This document shows positions 843 to 37,591 of a DNA stretch of 37,591 nt, in pieces. The DNA comes from a virus: the IMG/VR virus record IMGVR_UViG_3300028241_000164. One strand, 5' to 3'. The translations under genes were made by a program, and so were the position numbers. Below the pieces are notes generated by a model, which saw nothing but the letters and a program-made list of their open reading frames with translations, ran no database searches and was not told the DNA's origin. Each line of letters opens with the position of its first letter. Within the stretch, counting starts at the first letter, position 1.

Positions 843-883
843 TCTTTTCACCTCTTTTTCTTATGCAATCATCCCGGCGCCGG

Positions 884-912
884 TTAATGCGTTCCACATA
901 TTCAGTTGTCAA
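884..912 (-). promoter_or_regulatory. candidate sigma70-type promoter for the 77-aa gene (TTGACA-17-CATTAA)
   Basis: Minus-strand TTGACA (912..907), 17-nt spacer, CATTAA (889..884). It overlaps the palindrome GTCAAA-N5-TTTGAC (908..924). The -10 is weak. Confidence 0.3.
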
Positions 913-1163
913 AGTTCGTTTGACGCCATAATGGTATCACGCCCTGCAAGGTTTGGCAATTGTCAATAGTAACCAAAGTTTAATTCGCCATTGGAATTAA
1001 CGATGTGCAGGTTGCACGAGGAATTGAGGCTGTTATACTGGTAGTATAGAATAGCAGGGAAATGAACGGATTGATAATACCAGTTGTATAATGCGCTCCC
1101 CAAAAGAACCCTCACACCGCGTCTATTACTGCACACTTTTCCCAAATGTGTTCGCCAACTCGC

Positions 1164-1275
1164 CGTATGCCTTGCCATTGAATGCGCCTGGCCTTGCCTA
1201 TTGCTTGCCGTTCGTTATGCCGTGTTGCCGCATGCCTTGCCTATTGATTCGCCTTGCATGGCTTATGGCATAAGC
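1164..1275. repeat. iteron-like array (GCCTTGCC and variants, ~11/22-bp phasing) ending in the palindrome GCTTATGGCATAAGC
   Basis: GCCTTGCC at 1169, 1191 and 1234. Variants GCTTGCC at 1203, GTTGCC at 1224 and GCCTTGCA at 1251. Perfect 6-3-6 palindrome at 1261..1275. Confidence 0.55.
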
Positions 1276-1288
1276 AGCCTGCGCCACC

Positions 1289-1344
1289 TAATGTATTATA
1301 TATATCATAGAATAAACATAGTATATTATTATATTATACCTATG
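1289..1344. promoter_or_regulatory. AT-rich tract next to the iteron-like array (possible DNA unwinding element)
   Basis: The tract taatgtattatatatatcatagaataaacatagtatattattatattatacctat is very AT-rich in a genome of roughly balanced GC. Confidence 0.4.
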
Positions 1345-1787
1345 GCGCAGGAGGGGTGCCGACTTTTATCCCCCGGGGGAGGGGCGCTGCAACACCGTTC
1401 TCCTATAATTTTTCCCACAAAAGGGCTTTCGGGTTCGCCCTTCGGCTTCGCCCCTCATCTCTCGCCTATGCCGGCGCTCTACTTCGCTCTCAACTCGCAA
1501 CAGGCAATATAAGGGGTTCCCGTACTATGGTTCAGATGCTACTAATCACTCAACGGATATTACTCTGTTATACAGGTTATTATAATCTTGGCTACCGCAG
1601 ACACGTTATACAGGCAGTATAAACTCTGCTTATCACACACTTCTGCCTCTTCGTGTGCATTATCTCACACTATCCCCCATTTCCCTGTGCATAGCAGAAA
1701 ACGCCCTGCAAAGCAAAGCGTTTAGAGGAACTCCTTCTACACATGGCAGACGAGATAACTATATTGTATCAGATAAATCTTTCGTTA

Positions 1788-2519
1788 TCAGTATAAAGTT
1801 GTTTGTATTGCGTGCTGCTCAACCCGCTCAATGGCAATTTTGCAGTATTGCTCGTCGCGCTCTATTCCGACATAGTTTCGCCCCGTGTTAAGACAAGCGA
1901 TTGCGGTTGTTCCGCTTCCTATGCAATTATCCAATACCGTGTCGCCCTCGTTGGTGTATGTTTTAACAAGGTACTCAAATAGTGCAACGGGCTTTTGCGT
2001 TGGGTGCAGTCTTGGGCTGTTGGGATTATTAAAGACAGGGTTAAAACATATAACGGTTTGAGGTGATTTATCTAAATAAACCATTCCCGCTCTATCCATT
2101 GAATTTTTATGTAGCAATTTTGATGTCGGAGCACCACCGCTTTTCACTGGTTTTTTTAGTGTTGTTTTTTGCGGATTGTATTTCATGTTTAGTTTGGCAC
2201 CATTAGCCGTCTTTGCTATCGAGAACACGCATATATCCTCGTGACACCTAATAGGTCTTAATTTTGCGAGTTGAAAATCAGTCCCGTGTTCTTTATTCCA
2301 AACCCAACAATAACGAAACATGGTTGGATTGCTCATAACCAACGCACTTGTGAACGGTTGGCTTGCAGTTAATACGATTGCACCATCGTCTTTGATAACT
2401 CGCTTGTATTGTTCCCAAAGTGGCTCAAACGGTATAATAGTATCCCACTTGCAAGCGGTTGTACCATACGGTAAGTCGCATAAAATCATATCAATCGACT
2501 TGTCGGCTATATCGCGCAT
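1788..2519 (-). CDS. DNA methyltransferase, beta-class N6A/N4C type (MTase 1); the true start probably lies upstream of 2519
   Basis: Motif IV DLPYG. Motif I region HPTQKPVALFEYLV...LDNCIGSGTTAIA. The conserved N-terminal KIYCGDCLEV continues in frame upstream of the first ATG. Confidence 0.85.
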   Translation of the reverse strand: MRDIADKSIDMILCDLPYGTTACKWDTIIPFEPLWEQYKRVIKDDGAIVLTASQPFTSALVMSNPTMFRYCWVWNKEHGTDFQLAKLRPIRCHEDICVFSIAKTANGAKLNMKYNPQKTTLKKPVKSGGAPTSKLLHKNSMDRAGMVYLDKSPQTVICFNPVFNNPNSPRLHPTQKPVALFEYLVKTYTNEGDTVLDNCIGSGTTAIACLNTGRNYVGIERDEQYCKIAIERVEQHAIQTTLY

Positions 2520-2692
2520 TACTTCAAGGCAATCACCGCAATAGATTTTATTTGTTTCTAATATGGCTACTCATCCTCTCTTAATTATGCCTTGTTAATA
2601 CATTCTACAAATATTTACGGCCGAGCCTTTTGCAAGTTCTCTTGCATTATACTCTCTGTATTATTTCAACCTTGCTTTCTATACGCCCTGTA

Positions 2693-2875
2693 TTATTCAA
2701 AGAACCTTGTCCAATGAATTACAAGTATTGACGCTATCGCCTTTGCTACTGACACACTCGGCATCGCCCTGCCCCGCTCAATGGCGCTAACCATCTGCCG
2801 TGTTATGCCGCACCTATCGGCAACGTCCTGCTGCGTTAAGCCCCTATCCTTACGAGCCTGTGCCAACCAATTCAT
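2693..2875 (-). CDS. XRE-family helix-turn-helix transcriptional regulator (60 aa)
   Basis: LTQQDVADRCGITRQMVSAIERGRAMPSVSVAKAIA is a typical HTH_3 pattern. RBS AAAGGGGA lies 7 nt upstream and overlaps the stop of the upstream MTase. Confidence 0.85.
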   Translation of the reverse strand: MNWLAQARKDRGLTQQDVADRCGITRQMVSAIERGRAMPSVSVAKAIASILVIHWTRFFE

Positions 2876-2889
2876 TTACTTATCCCCTT

Positions 2890-3564
2890 TCACCATAATT
2901 TCATTTGCGCCTTTACTGCGTTCAGCCGTTCATTCGCTGCCTTGTAATAGTCCTCGTCTAACTCAAAGCCCCAATATTCAAAGCCCATATTGTGGCAGGC
3001 AATCAGCGAGGATGCAGAACCAACGTGTGTGTCAAGGATTTTGTCGCCTTGCTTTGCGTAGTTCATCAGTAGCCATTCGTAGAGTTTGACGGGCTTTTGC
3101 GTCGGGTGTATTTTATTCTCACCTTGCGGGTTATTAAGGTATCCAAAACCTATCCAGTCGTAGGTAAATCGCCGCAAAATACAGTTAAACGACGTCCACG
3201 CGAGTTCACCATCTGAAAAATTTGTATTGTTTGCATTGGTTATTTTTTTATCCCAAAATACCCATCCTTTTTTTGCGGGCAATAGGTCGGCAAAGTAATT
3301 TCCACCCCATATAATTTGATTTTTTGATACTCTTTGAAGTGCATCAAAATATTTCCGTGGCGGTCTTTTGGTATCCCATTGTTTTTTTTCGTGATGCTGT
3401 ATGCTTGAAAAGGTGCTTGCTTTTCCCGATTTCCCCACTACCGTTGTATTTCCGTCAACGCCTATCCCATACGGCGGGTCAACAATAGCCAACTCAAAAT
3501 ACTTATCGGGGAACTGTGCCATACCGTCCATGCAGTCCATGTTGTAAAAGCCGCTGTCGAGCAT
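2890..3564 (-). CDS. DNA N6-adenine-type methyltransferase (MTase 2), paralog of 32167..32775
   Basis: Motifs FYNMDCMDGM, DPPYG, HPTQKPVKLYEWLL and DTHVGSASS. Start set to ATG 3564 (RBS GAAAGGGG) because a promoter sits inside the longer track ORF. Confidence 0.9.
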   Translation of the reverse strand: MLDSGFYNMDCMDGMAQFPDKYFELAIVDPPYGIGVDGNTTVVGKSGKASTFSSIQHHEKKQWDTKRPPRKYFDALQRVSKNQIIWGGNYFADLLPAKKGWVFWDKKITNANNTNFSDGELAWTSFNCILRRFTYDWIGFGYLNNPQGENKIHPTQKPVKLYEWLLMNYAKQGDKILDTHVGSASSLIACHNMGFEYWGFELDEDYYKAANERLNAVKAQMKLW

Positions 3565-3595
3565 ATTTTCGCCCCTTTCAATTTCGTCTGCACTA

Positions 3596-3624
3596 ATAGT
3601 AGCAAATCGAAATAGCATTGTCAA
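3596..3624 (-). promoter_or_regulatory. sigma70-type promoter for MTase 2 (TTGACA-17-TACTAT)
   Basis: Minus-strand TTGACA (3624..3619), exact 17-nt spacer, TACTAT (3601..3596). It lies about 30 nt upstream of ATG 3564. Confidence 0.6.
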
Positions 3625-3649
3625 TAGGTTTTACAAATATTTTCACCGT

Positions 3650-3682
3650 ATCTGCATAATTCGTCCCATATTTTATGCAGAT
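3650..3682. promoter_or_regulatory. perfect 10-bp inverted repeat ATCTGCATAA-N13-TTATGCAGAT (operator-like)
   Basis: Read directly from the sequence. A third half-site-like copy, ATCTGCGTAT, is at 3711..3720. Confidence 0.5.
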
Positions 3683-3836
3683 AACGGGACATACTCTCTG
3701 TATTATTTTTATCTGCGTATTTATACCCGCTGTATATATTTTTTCCAACATAAAGGTCAATTTGCACCCTATCGGTGTATAATCCAAACGCCCACGGAAG
3801 GGGCAGCCGTGAGCGTAAGGGAGGGAAGGGGCCATG

Positions 3837-3974: not shown

Positions 3975-4103
3975 TTTGCTGTCCCTCACTTTTGTCATTT
4001 TTTGTATGTTAATGAACATATTGTTCAATATCTGTTCAGGTAGTCTTGCTCCATAGGCATCACCATCCCCATTGTCGTCGCTGTTATAGTTCAGGCCGAT
4101 ATA

Positions 4104-4132
4104 ATCATATCAAATTGAAATGCAAAAATCAA
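4104..4132 (-). promoter_or_regulatory. leftward promoter (TTGATT-17-TATGAT with extended -10 TG)
   Basis: Minus strand reads CCGCTTGATTTTTGCATTTCAATTTGATATGAT. It is homologous to the rightward promoter at 4497..4525. Confidence 0.65.
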
Positions 4133-4225
4133 GCGGTTTTTCAAATTTTTTCAAATAAAAGCGCAAAGAAAGAAAGAACCAAAGAAAGAAATAATGTATC
4201 TCGTAATCTCTATTTACAGACTTTA

Positions 4226-4435
4226 TATATTATCTAGTTGTAGGCTAGTTGTAGGCTTATTGTAAAGCTAGTTGTAGGCTAGTTGAGAACGAGTTGAATA
4301 AAATATAATAATAATAAATATAAATTAAAATATATTATCTAGTTGTAGGCTAGTTGTAGGCTTATTGTAAGGCTAGTTGTAGGCTAGTTGAGAACGAGTT
4401 GAATAAAATATAATAATAATAAATATAAATTAAAA
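4226..4435. repeat. 2 x 105-bp tandem duplication; each copy has six 11-bp phased CTAGTTGTAGG-type units plus a ~40-bp pure A/T tract
   Basis: Copy 1 (4226..4330) and copy 2 (4331..4435) differ at one base (4266 a versus 4371 g). Unit starts in copy 1 are 4234, 4245, 4256, 4268, 4279 and 4290. Confidence 0.95.
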
Positions 4436-4496
4436 TAAATAAATATATAATACATATATGCACCGAAAAATAATCTGCAATTATCCGTAAAACCGC

Positions 4497-4525
4497 TTGA
4501 CATTGCCATTTCAAATCGCTATAAT
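4497..4525 (+). promoter_or_regulatory. consensus sigma70 promoter (TTGACA-17-TATAAT) for the rightward late operon
   Basis: TTGACA at 4497..4502, 17-nt spacer, TATAAT at 4520..4525. The terS RBS GGGGGTGA follows. Confidence 0.75.
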
Positions 4526-30998: not shown

Positions 30999-31120
30999 TT
31001 TGGCTGAACAACATAATTCTATTCGCGTTTTGCAGGCAGACGAACAACCCCGAACAACTCAAACGAACCGCAAAGGAACAGCGGGATTTTTATAAGGCGC
31101 AGATGAGGAAAAAGAAGTGA
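30995..31120 (+). CDS. hypothetical mini-protein (41 aa)
   Basis: The ATG overlaps the rusA stop, and its stop overlaps the next GTG start. It fills the gap exactly. Confidence 0.4.
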   Translation: MIWLNNIILFAFCRQTNNPEQLKRTAKEQRDFYKAQMRKKK

Positions 31121-31758
31121 ACACAGAATATCATAAAATCAAATCACTTTATAGGCGCGATATGGAAGGCACAAAGCGGCTTATTGAAGGCGCGTATGCC
31201 AACGAACTGGTGGAGTATCTCAAAGACAATCAATGGATTTTCACCGAGAAGGTTGACGGAACGAATATCCGCGTCGTTTGGGATGGTCACAAGGTTGAGT
31301 TCTTCGGTAGAACAGATAAGGCGCAGATACCGGCCCATCTTATGACGAAACTGATGTCCCTTTTCTATGGAGAGGAAAACGCACAGGTTTTCGAGCAGTT
31401 ATTTGGAGAGAGAGAGGCCGTGATTTACGGAGAGGGATATGGCCCGAAGATTCAGGCCGGGGGAGAGAAGTATTCTTCCGAAGCACAATTCATCGCATTT
31501 GATGTTAAGGTGAGTGACATTTTCCTTGAACGAGAGGCGGCGGAGGTTATTGCAGAGGCCCTGAATATTCCTATGGTTCCCATCATCCTTATCGGTAGTA
31601 TCGGCGAGGCTGTTTCGTATGTTAAATCAAAACCATTATCACAGGTAGCCGCACAGGAGCGGGAAATGGAAGGGTTGGTCGGCGTACCGGCGCGCAGAAT
31701 CTATGATGTTTTGGGCGGAAGGGTTATCGTTAAAATAAAGGGGTGTGATTTCGATTGA
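31117..31758 (+). CDS. ATP-dependent RNA ligase family protein (Rnl2/DRB0094-like nucleotidyltransferase)
   Basis: Motif I EKVDGTN, III VIYGEGYG, IIIa FIAFDV, IV MEGLVGV, V VIVKIKG. GTG start. Confidence 0.7.
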   Translation: MNTEYHKIKSLYRRDMEGTKRLIEGAYANELVEYLKDNQWIFTEKVDGTNIRVVWDGHKVEFFGRTDKAQIPAHLMTKLMSLFYGEENAQVFEQLFGEREAVIYGEGYGPKIQAGGEKYSSEAQFIAFDVKVSDIFLEREAAEVIAEALNIPMVPIILIGSIGEAVSYVKSKPLSQVAAQEREMEGLVGVPARRIYDVLGGRVIVKIKGCDFD

Positions 31759-32153
31759 TTATCCCCGCAATGAATGGCAAGACGATGCCTAAAAAGGTTG
31801 CCTATTCATCAGATGAACGGAAGCCGCTTGTCATTGCCGTTGACTTCGATGGTACGCTATGCGAGAACGCTTGGCCCGTCATTGGCGCTCCTAAACGTGA
31901 GATGATTCGCCTGATGATTGCTCGGAAGCGTATGGGTGACAAGATTGTTCTTTGGACGTGCCGGGAAGATGAATCGCTTGACTTTGCCGTTCAATGGTGT
32001 GCCTCCCACGGCCTGTACTTCGACGCGGTGAACGCGAATCTTCCGGAGGAACAGGAGAAATGGCAATCGAATCCCCGTAAAATCGGAGCGGACATTTACA
32101 TCGACGACAAGGGGTTAAATCCGCAGAACATTCCTGAATGGTGGTTTGACTGA
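31755..32153 (+). CDS. HAD-superfamily phosphatase (DxDGT type)
   Basis: Motif I VDFDGTL, motif II LWTCR, motifs III/IV RKIGADIYIDDKG. The start (TTG 31755 or ATG 31770) is uncertain. Confidence 0.7.
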   Translation: MIIPAMNGKTMPKKVAYSSDERKPLVIAVDFDGTLCENAWPVIGAPKREMIRLMIARKRMGDKIVLWTCREDESLDFAVQWCASHGLYFDAVNANLPEEQEKWQSNPRKIGADIYIDDKGLNPQNIPEWWFD

Positions 32154-32166
32154 AAAGGAGCAGACA

Positions 32167-32775
32167 ATGTTACAAAGCGGCTTTTACAACATGGATTGCA
32201 TGGACGGTATGGCACAATTTCCCGATAAGTATTTTGAGTTGGCGATTGTTGACCCGCCGTATGGGTTGGAACGTTTTAAGCATGGCGGTTCAGTTATAAA
32301 CAAATATGGCGATGAAAACGGGGAATGGAATAACACAAAGCCCACAAAAGAATATTTCGATGAATTATTTAGAGTATCTCAATGCCAAATAATATGGGGC
32401 GCGAATAATTTTCAGCTTCCACCTACGGAATATTTTGTGATTTGGGATAAGTTGAACCCTGTTGATTTTAGTTTTGCAATGTGCGAAATGGCATGGACGA
32501 ACTGCAGGAAACCGGCAAAAATATATCAATGCAATTCAATGCAATTAGACCGAATTCACCCGACACAAAAGCCCGTTAAACTCTACGAATGGCTACTAAT
32601 GAACTACGCAAAACAAGGCGACAAAATCCTTGACACACACGTTGGTTCTGCATCCTCGCTGATTGCCTGCCACAATATGGGCTTTGAATATTGGGGTTTT
32701 GAATTAGACGAGGACTATTACAAAGCGGCAAGCGAACGGCTCGAAGCAGTAAAGGCACAATTAAAATTATGGTGA
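32167..32775 (+). CDS. DNA N6-adenine-type methyltransferase (MTase 3), paralog of 2890..3564 with a different central region
   Basis: Its N-terminal region (FYNMDCMDGMAQFPDKYFELAIVDPPYG) and its C-terminal region match MTase 2. Start at ATG 32167 after AAGGAG. Confidence 0.9.
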   Translation: MLQSGFYNMDCMDGMAQFPDKYFELAIVDPPYGLERFKHGGSVINKYGDENGEWNNTKPTKEYFDELFRVSQCQIIWGANNFQLPPTEYFVIWDKLNPVDFSFAMCEMAWTNCRKPAKIYQCNSMQLDRIHPTQKPVKLYEWLLMNYAKQGDKILDTHVGSASSLIACHNMGFEYWGFELDEDYYKAASERLEAVKAQLKLW

Positions 32776-32790
32776 AAGGAAACGGACGAA

Positions 32791-35762: not shown

Positions 35763-35763
35763 A

Positions 35764-35781
35764 GGCCGCCTTTCGGCGGCC
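35764..35781. terminator. bidirectional rho-independent terminator between convergent operons
   Basis: GGCCGCC-tttc-GGCGGCC, with T-rich runs on both strands (cATTTCTTT on plus, TTTATCTTTTAT on minus). Confidence 0.8.
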
Positions 35782-35805
35782 CATTTCTTTGCTTGATAGT
35801 TATTA

Positions 35806-36030
35806 TCACCTCCAAACTAACCTTGTTGTTTCAGTTGCCTGCCCCAACGGTGCAATAGGATGCAATCTGCGAAGTGTGCATACAATGTCATTTTCTTGAC
35901 TATCCCAAACGTACATTGTTGGACACGCGGAAAAAACATTATTTGACAGAATAGATGCCTTGCGTTTTAAGTCGCTCATTGTGTTAGCCCTTATAATGTT
36001 CCCGTGTAAAAGCCCCTTAAATCTTGTCAT
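35806..36030 (-). CDS. hypothetical protein (74 aa)
   Basis: RBS GGAGGA 7 nt upstream of ATG 36030. Confidence 0.6.
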   Translation of the reverse strand: MTRFKGLLHGNIIRANTMSDLKRKASILSNNVFSACPTMYVWDSQENDIVCTLRRLHPIAPLGQATETTRLVWR

Positions 36031-36040
36031 TGTTTTCCTC

Positions 36041-37451: not shown

Positions 37452-37591
37452 CTTATTTCCTCCAATTCGGCAATGCGCTCAATCATCCATGCGTTGATTT
37501 TGTCTTTCATATCCGCATAATCCGCCGCATGAGCCGCATCATTCGCCACATAAGCCGCCGCATCAGCCGCATAAGCCGCCGCACGAGCCGC
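37448..37591 (-). CDS. 3' part of the junction-spanning DUF7666-like/Imm5-like gene (continues from 1..481)
   Basis: 47 codons in frame from the window end, AARAAAYAADAAAYVANDAAHAADYADMKDKINAWMIERIAELEEIR, then TGA at 37450..37448. Confidence 0.7.
   Translation of the reverse strand, partial: AARAAAYAADAAAYVANDAAHAADYADMKDKINAWMIERIAELEEIR
37570..37591. repeat. 22-bp terminal overlap, second copy (identical to 1..22)
   Basis: Identical to 1..22. Confidence 0.9.

Follow-up and report, generated by a model that had tools for sequence, protein, structure and literature searches.

A non-coding gap with repeated palindromic sites as a candidate control region ahead of an accessory operon in a phage genome

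The 37,591-nucleotide (nt) sequence analyzed here, IMG/VR virus record IMGVR_UViG_3300028241_000164, is referred to in full length as the window; it is a complete, circularly permuted phage contig (source contig JGI Ga0401740_000625), and our subject is a gap of ~945 nt between genes at positions 843-1787. The phage encodes a terminase, a portal protein, Erf, SSB, Gam, RusA, a DnaC-like loader and three DNA methyltransferases; among the open reading frames (ORFs) scanned we recognized no integrase or CI-like long repressor, no restriction-modification endonuclease and no partition genes, and a tRNA/tmRNA search found none. Judged from gene content, the methylases appear to be orphans. The gap sits within a block of minus-strand genes, and all genes flanking it are on the minus strand. 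The block starts with a 63-amino-acid (aa) gene, which is followed by methyltransferase 2 (~3564-2890), directly after it by a 60-aa gene for an XRE-type helix-turn-helix (HTH) protein (2875-2693), and then by methyltransferase 1 (2519-1788), whose stop codon borders the gap. On the other side stands a 77-aa gene (842-609), whose ATG at 842 borders the gap and whose ribosome-binding site AAGAGGTGA is found at 856-848, and after it a DUF7666/Imm5-like gene that spans the window ends, that is, the circular junction.

The original prediction, made from the letters of this DNA, had described the gap as a non-coding island in an otherwise tightly packed genome. The gap is real, but the packing was overstated: further non-coding stretches lie at 4029-4496 (468 nt of AT-rich repeats), ~3565-3836 and ~2560-2692, and ~280 nt around 35763-36040 are seemingly non-coding too. 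That the gap contains no plausible ORF was borne out by codon usage, stop-codon recoding, Pfam and PHROGs, all of which were negative. By a codon-usage log-likelihood for which the phage's own genes served as training set, the seven gap ORFs tested (44-142 aa) scored -0.04 to -0.20 per codon, compared with +0.05 to +0.35 for its real genes. Reassignment of a single stop codon was rejected because TAA, TAG and TGA stops are mixed in all six frames of the gap. Six-frame translations gave no match in Pfam or PHROGs, a comparison of the gap with the ORFs of relatives and of the window gave nothing past trivial non-coding homology, and a search of 5.8 billion proteins with the concatenated translations of six gap ORFs returned no homologue.

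The symmetric motifs that the prediction had listed are all present, at most 1-2 nt from where it had placed them, and its view that the gap is rich in such elements holds for one family among them. Overall the excess is only marginal: the gap contains 8 perfect 6-base-pair (bp) stems with loops of 3-15 nt against 3.2 ± 2.1 in dinucleotide shuffles, and ~4% of the shuffles reach 8. The TATAC-N5-GTATA family, in contrast, is far above chance, and its core palindrome ATAC-N5-GTAT is the only listed motif that is clearly non-random. The 37.6-kb window has 7 copies where 0.27 would be expected, a count that none of 100 shuffles reaches, and all seven sites are confined to 1035-3735; for the longer TATAC-N5-GTAT, 9 strand matches compare with an expectation of 0.10. 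Restricting the count to the non-coding segments leaves 6 sites, with 0.04 expected (0 of 2000 shuffles reach 6). Other phage loci (2.19 Mb) show a background of ~0.013 per kb, and allowing one mismatch adds hits at background level only.

These sites form four clusters, two of which (X and Y) are inside the gap. Cluster Y consists of two exact matches, ATACTGGTAGTAT at 1035-1047 and ATACCAGTTGTAT at 1077-1089, 42 nt apart from center to center. Cluster X (1565-1622) combines an exact site, ATACAGGCAGTAT at 1608-1620, with a degenerate one, ATACAGGTTATTA at 1570-1582, 38 nt away, and the flank CTGTTATAC(A/T)GGT is common to X and Y. The other two stand outside the gap, upstream of methyltransferases 1 and 2, respectively: pair 2 (ATACTCTCTGTAT at 2649-2661 and ATACGCCCTGTAT at 2681-2693) lies between the HTH gene and methyltransferase 1, and pair 3 (ATACTCTCTGTAT at 3691-3703 and ATACCCGCTGTAT at 3723-3735) lies upstream of the methyltransferase 2/HTH operon. 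Pairs 2 and 3 have in common an identical 16-mer, ATAATACAGAGAGTAT, a 32-nt spacing and the second box AAATATTTGTA. The distance from the start codons is ~135 nt for the methylases and 190-250 nt for the 77-aa gene. The recurrence of one short palindrome in several intergenic regions of the early genes points to a dimeric DNA-binding regulator.

Of the two clusters in the gap, the diverged relatives cover Y, which proved strongly conserved. Look-ups with exact proteins yielded three near-identical relatives (L082, L083 and L279) and four diverged ones (L084, L085, L280 and L281); each derives from an anaerobic digester or a metagenome assembly. Coverage of the gap by the diverged relatives runs from 843 to ~1291, in L084 to ~1450. 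The 77-aa gene is 95-97% identical between the relatives and the window. Identity is 67-86%, with indels, over 843-965 and 73-77% over 966-1029, rises to 94-97% over 1030-1095, and is only 18-47% in a forced alignment over 1161-1291, which is rearranged. The block 1030-1095, which holds cluster Y, thus equals the adjacent coding gene in its conservation in L084, L085 and L280, and the non-coding DNA flanking it is 67-86% identical with indels. In or near 1161-1291, TATAAT modules are duplicated in L084 and L085 and the window has a 65-nt expansion. At the position of the window's AT-rich stretch, L084 carries an insert of ~230 nt (L084 108-400) between two 30-nt modules that contain TATAAT; the opposite strand of this insert carries an ORF whose N-terminal part, ~70 aa long, is a coiled coil; this ORF continues across the duplicated module, meets a stop only at the contig end and looks like a captured gene piece. 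Over 608-1201, L280 and the window are 91% identical, and L281 has other small genes instead of the gap, its homology to the window ending at ~867. The GTCAAA-N5-TTTGAC motif listed in the prediction is not conserved among the relatives. As far as these alignments go, the pattern would fit a mosaic regulatory spacer and not one folded RNA.

Searches beyond these relatives were less productive. The 77-aa, DUF7666, DnaC-like loader and HTH proteins gave no close relative as IMG/VR queries, the 77-aa protein gave nothing against GTDB genomes, exact DNA patterns of the conserved blocks gave nothing in viral contigs or GTDB genomes, and BLAST against GenBank phages and PLSDB plasmids gave no match. 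The methyltransferase 1 query found hundreds of matches, with identities of up to 61% in viral contigs and up to 69% in metagenome contigs; its closest homologues, 70-74% identical, are in unrelated phages without the gap, which indicates that the gene is mobile cargo.

A large structured RNA of the ROOL/GOLLD class had been offered as one explanation of the gap, and neither Rfam, nor folding z-scores, nor the indels between relatives lend it support. The gap does resemble ROOL, GOLLD, HEARO, OLE and raiA RNAs in being long, ORF-free and phage-borne; its length fits the class, coding signal is absent, and large ornate RNAs do occur in phages. However, an Rfam scan of the whole window gave no match at the gathering threshold, and at E<=10 on 500-2100 it gave three sub-threshold hits, a terminator-like hairpin and noise, with no large RNA among them. 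The minimum free energy of the whole gap (936 nt, 852-1787) is close to that of shuffles (z = -0.81 on the minus and -0.31 on the plus strand), and sliding 150-nt windows on both strands range from ~-2.7 to +1.4. The hairpins named in the prediction are unremarkable in folding, with the exception of a terminator described below, and the segments that host its proposed GAGGGGCG/CGCCCCTC helix and UUCG hairpin have unremarkable z-scores. RNAalifold on four sequences over 840-1165, an alignment of low power, gave a covariation term of -0.56 kcal/mol, with 4 of 66 pairs double-changed. In addition, the architecture of the gap is not kept between relatives: collinearity is broken by the ~230-nt insert, the 65-nt expansion and a 30-nt insert, and L281 has the 77-aa gene without the gap within 590 nt upstream. 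Such module-sized indels and patchy conservation make a single folded RNA unlikely, since it would not tolerate them. We consider it barely credible that the whole gap is one large ornate RNA of the ROOL, GOLLD or OLE class, and the gap would drop off the list of putative large phage RNAs.

Candidate transcription signals lie toward both ends of the gap. At 1723-1691 (minus strand), a stem of 10-11 bp (AAACGCUUUGC/GCAGGGCGUUU) closed by a 3-nt loop leads into the tail UCUGCUAU; the hairpin (1723-1699) folds at -18.1 kcal/mol (z = -2.2) and is located 65 nt past the methyltransferase 1 stop at 1788, and the only Rfam near-hit, the terminator-type small-RNA hairpin sau-6072 (19.9 bits, E = 0.55), falls on it. 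The hairpin is plausible as the intrinsic terminator of the methyltransferase gene. At the other end, a consensus scan found a candidate sigma-70 promoter for the 77-aa gene at 959-931 on the minus strand (TTGCCA, 17 nt and a TG-extended TACCAT), and the stretch GGCGTGATACCATTATGGCG in its -10 region is nearly invariant in four relatives. If this site is a promoter, as its sequence suggests, then 843-930 on the minus strand, 84-86% conserved in L084 and L280, is likely the 5' leader of the 77-aa gene. An extended -10 within cluster Y (TGGTATTAT, 1082-1074) possibly also drives this gene. The host uses canonical sigma-70 hexamers, to judge by a perfect TTGACA-17-TATAAT at 4497-4525, and a TTGACA-17-TACTAT promoter-like site is present at 3624-3596 on the minus strand, downstream of operator pair 3. 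The operator clusters, judged by eye, have no consistent -35/-10 geometry, and no promoter is claimed there.

Two annotation details concern the methyltransferase genes at these sites. The source annotation places an 80-aa gene at 3593-3835 on the minus strand, which contains operator pair 3, overlaps the TTGACA-17-TACTAT site of methyltransferase 2 and has a codon-usage score of 0.01; it is probably spurious, and methyltransferase 2 seems in fact to begin at the ATG near 3564, with the N-terminus MLDSGFYNMDC.... The frame of methyltransferase 1 extends upstream of its ATG at 2519 (2520-2575, minus strand), where by eye it encodes a typical N-terminus of the family, ...LETNKIYCGDCLEVM; further upstream there is an in-frame TGA and then no ATG, GTG or TTG, and the sole start candidate is an ATA 9 nt after a GAGAGGA ribosome-binding site. 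This extension could reflect a non-canonical start, a frameshift or an assembly error.

The likeliest binder of the ATAC-N5-GTAT operators is the 60-aa XRE-family HTH protein encoded at 2693-2875 on the minus strand, and we treat it as a candidate. It matches Pfam HTH_3 (E = 9e-17) as well as repressor and regulator families of PHROGs; in PDB its top relatives include C.BclI, a weak match (E = 1e-3), and SinR, and in NCBIfam RstR scored highest without reaching the cutoff of the model. Thus, the Pfam, NCBIfam and PDB searches returned only generic XRE relatives. No other DNA-binding regulator was found among the ORFs scanned.

We propose that the gap is a composite transcription-control region heading an accessory/anti-defense operon rather than one RNA gene, a reading to which we give a probability of roughly 0.55. 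Its earlier description as a possible regulatory hub fared well, as it holds two operator clusters, the terminator of the upstream gene and promoter-like sites for the downstream operon. Read in the minus-strand direction, the methyltransferase transcript would end at the intrinsic terminator at 1723-1691, after which come operator clusters X (1570/1608) and then Y (1035/1077), and the promoter-like site at 959-931, possibly with the -10 within Y, would start the 77-aa gene and the genes that follow. A dimeric phage DNA-binding protein, most likely the 60-aa HTH protein encoded just after methyltransferase 2, would bind all four clusters and, in a coordinated way, limit how strongly its own gene, the methylases and the downstream island are expressed early on. 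The 470 nt between X and Y vary by whole modules between relatives; at its simplest, this segment would be variable spacer and remnant DNA with further protein-binding sites.

The content of the downstream operon in a relative gives this proposal its anti-defense context. Sequence L280 has five extra small genes between the 77-aa and DUF7666 genes that the window lacks, and one of the five, at L280 1473-1673, encodes a 66-aa AcrIC5 homologue (Pfam PF22147, E = 1.9e-21, 76 bits, above the Pfam cutoff), which belongs to the operon starting with the 77-aa gene. No acr gene was recognized in the window's own operon. The AcrIC5 homologue and the other extra small genes in the L280 island suggest that the gap heads a variable counter-defense island. 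If the control-region reading holds, a 13-bp palindrome at four spots would let one small regulator coordinate its own gene with a pair of anti-restriction methylases and with a variable island in which relatives carry an anti-CRISPR, and the phage would offer a modest case of Aca-like control extending past anti-CRISPR genes to a wider counter-defense regulon; the palindrome would also be an easy handle for the motif-based finding of such regulons.

Several observations weigh against this proposal. All promoter assignments are consensus matches, and promoter-like sites are unenriched in the region (7 against 5.9 expected by the consensus scan). The clearest promoter-like sites have their -35 hexamers 66-75 nt downstream of the operator pairs, which is far for simple repression. 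The HTH protein is assigned as the binder because it is the sole recognizable regulator, and its distant homologues carry no ATAC-N5-GTAT sites. Behind cluster X there is no gene on the minus strand, in contrast to the remaining three clusters, each of which stands ahead of one. Two further parts of the gap, 1362-1423 and 1162-1270, are conserved or repeated and have no assigned function, and the comparative data stop before the distal third of the gap (1450-1787).

As a composite control region, the gap would be an ordinary kind of element, and by analogy it would work like the Aca and C-protein systems, with membership in either not established. The acr operons are controlled by small HTH Aca repressors (PMC9410906; PMC6765145), the acr promoters carrying one or two similar inverted repeats bound by the repressor, and reported Aca sites are within 150 bp of the start codon, mostly within 120 bp (PMC9410906). 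Similarly, the small HTH gene of the window is at the end of a counter-defense operon, each putative promoter region has one or two similar inverted repeats, paired at all four clusters, with a palindrome reused at several such regions, and the operon just after the gap carries an AcrIC5 homologue in a close relative. In contrast to Aca genes, the HTH gene follows a DNA methyltransferase gene and not an acr gene, of which none was recognized here; its product scores as generic XRE only, in searches of Pfam, NCBIfam and PDB; and the operators are ~135-250 nt from start codons.

C proteins likewise control restriction-modification genes (PMC2175313, PMC3488213). The resemblance to them consists in a small XRE-type HTH protein encoded beside methyltransferase genes, in the paired palindromic operators that precede the regulated genes, the regulator's own operon included, and in the weak similarity of the HTH protein to C.BclI. 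C-boxes are of the GACT...AGTC type, from which ATAC-N5-GTAT differs. Moreover, the paired sites of the window are 32-42 nt apart and not adjacent, the operators of the HTH operon precede methyltransferase 2 instead of abutting the HTH gene itself, only two of the four clusters adjoin a methylase gene, and the ORFs scanned include no recognizable restriction endonuclease. The lambda OL/OR operators, bound by CI and Cro, are the example of multi-operator immunity and early control in temperate phages. As in lambda, a short palindrome is repeated in several early intergenic regions and a small HTH protein is encoded among them; unlike in lambda, the pairs are 32-42 nt apart and do not form tight triplets overlapping divergent promoters, and the integrase and CI-like long repressor are missing from the ORFs scanned.

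The segment between X and Y contains several elements of its own. At 1162-1270 there is an array of direct repeats, GCCTTGCC(T)ATTG, spaced ~11, 22 and 32 nt, which accounts for four of the nine GCAAGGC occurrences on both strands of the genome; its copy number differs between the window, L084/L280 and L085, and the 65-nt expansion of the window relative to L084 and L280 lies in this array. Next to it, at 1278-1351, a perfect 9-bp inverted repeat (CCTGCGCCA/TGGCGCAGG) encloses a 56-nt AT-rich stretch (1287-1342); this element folds with z-scores of only -1.7 and -1.8 and contains the TATAAT module duplicated in L084. A block at 1362-1423 is ~95% conserved in L084 (3 differences in 62 nt) and contains a 12-bp palindrome, TCCCCCGGGGGA (1369-1380), and a plus-strand TATAAT (1404-1409).

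Part of this evidence could be read as a discrete non-coding RNA of ~200-500 nt from ~1096-1690, be it a small RNA, an antisense RNA or a long regulatory leader, that starts near an operator cluster and shares its control with the anti-defense genes. Cluster X, unlike the other three, has no ORF behind it; L084 retains the block 1362-1423 but not its flanks; local folding is best at 1550-1749 on the plus strand (z = -2.6 and -2.7); and at 1343-1370 a plus-strand hairpin is followed by ACTTTTATCC, a tail that L084 has in common behind a different hairpin, GTGGCCGGCCAC. However, neither the hairpin at 1338-1375 nor the corresponding one in L084 surpasses shuffles in folding (z = +0.3 and 0.0), z-scores for the whole gap are near zero, Rfam gave no hit, the central part differs by insertions of 65-230 nt between relatives, and no convincing promoter was found. 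On balance we regard a discrete RNA here as unlikely.

A special form of this idea draws on an anti-CRISPR precedent: the RNA anti-CRISPR RacrIC1, a solitary CRISPR-repeat unit, is encoded 11 nt after an AcrIC5 homologue (PMC10651486). The gap is likewise intergenic and adjoins an island with AcrIC5 in a relative. By eye, the conserved minus-strand block GTGTT-GCAGCGCCCCTCCCCC-GGGGGATAAAAG recalls what we take to be the type I-E repeat, GTGTTCCCCGCGCCAGCGGGGATAAACCG, and we use this as a lead only. By extension of the published RacrIC1-AcrIC5 pairing, which the AcrIC5 gene in a close relative's island echoes, 1096-1564 might encode a repressor-controlled counter-defense non-coding RNA in which 1423-1362 on the minus strand (GTGTT...CCCCCGGGGGATAAAAG) acts as a solitary CRISPR-repeat mimic. 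The middle part of the block is, however, 4-5 nt longer than the type I-E repeat and lacks a clean stem. The type I-C tag (ATTGAAAC) is absent from the gap and from the sequence after the L280 AcrIC5 gene, no arrays with the block's repeat were found in viral contigs (15 viral hits to CCCCGGGGGATAAAA are unrelated single copies), and Rfam on the 101-nt slice 1340-1440 gave nothing useful, with no match to CRISPR-DR or any CRISPR-repeat family. We therefore hold this reading, the mimic included, to be a long shot.

The repeat array, the AT-rich stretch as an unwinding element and the GC-rich palindromes could instead belong to a replication or segregation site acting at the DNA level, such as an origin or a centromere-like array. 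The GCCTTGCC repeats with their spacing, followed by the AT-rich stretch in its inverted repeat, have the expected layout of phased direct repeats beside an AT-rich element (1162-1342); the copy number varies among relatives, as in iteron arrays; and the phage has a DnaC-like helicase loader and no recognized initiator. The same layout is much stronger at 4029-4496, a far more typical candidate; partition genes are missing among the ORFs scanned, and the gap resembles no plasmid or phage record. An origin or segregation site in the center of the gap is thus quite doubtful. The stretch 4029-4496 itself is 22-30% GC and consists of a 105-bp unit repeated twice (99% identity) with nine 11-bp CTAGTTGTAGG iterons (4-5 per copy). 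It is located between the minus-strand early block and the TTGACA-17-TATAAT site at 4497-4525, which precedes a small-terminase-like gene, and by its sequence features it would be the best candidate for an origin or packaging site.

Cluster X could also be explained by gene loss, part of the gap being the decayed remnant of a cassette that once stood behind it. Every other operator cluster precedes a gene, the neighboring island gains and loses small genes between relatives, and L084 has its ORF with the ~70-aa coiled-coil part at the corresponding spot. The searches described above speak against this idea, as no frame of the gap retains Pfam or PHROG similarity, no likeness to the ORFs of the relatives or the window goes beyond trivial non-coding homology, the protein search with the six concatenated ORFs found no homologue, and codon usage is uniformly non-coding. 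Decay of a former gene accordingly appears rather improbable, and we retain the composite control region with a variable spacer as our reading of the segment.

Other observations concern the accessory island and the wider genome. The palindrome CCGGCGCCGG (874-883) is part of a 24-nt element at 874-897, and GC-rich palindromes of the CCGGCGCCGG type, often extended to the 24-nt CCGGCGCCGGTTAATGCGTT(T/C)CAC, recur between the small genes of the accessory island: besides window 874-897, they are found at 742 and 1197 in L084, 835 in L085, 345, 800, 1746 and 2052 in L280, and 300 and 1006 in L281. They occur in both orientations, hence several genes are flanked by inverted copies, and homology between relatives breaks at them; these junction elements may be recombination cassette junctions or intercistronic RNA hairpins. 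In the relatives, GGCAAG is also present beside the junction palindromes, as GGCAAGCGATAAAGG. At the window ends, 1-70 and 37513-37591 have common 9-12-nt repeats (AGCCGCCGCACG), which are the two halves of an alanine-rich repeat (AAYAAA...) within the junction-spanning DUF7666/Imm5-like gene, and the window is ~26 nt shorter than the source contig at this circular junction. The last ~75 codons of methyltransferase 2 (2886-3112, minus strand) are 92% identical in DNA to those of the third methyltransferase (32553-32779), whose gene is at 32146-32775 on the plus strand; this inverted duplicate, ~30 kb apart, could mediate inversion. At 31117-32153, an RNA ligase gene adjoins a polynucleotide kinase/phosphatase-like gene, a pairing typical of phage tRNA-repair counter-defense.

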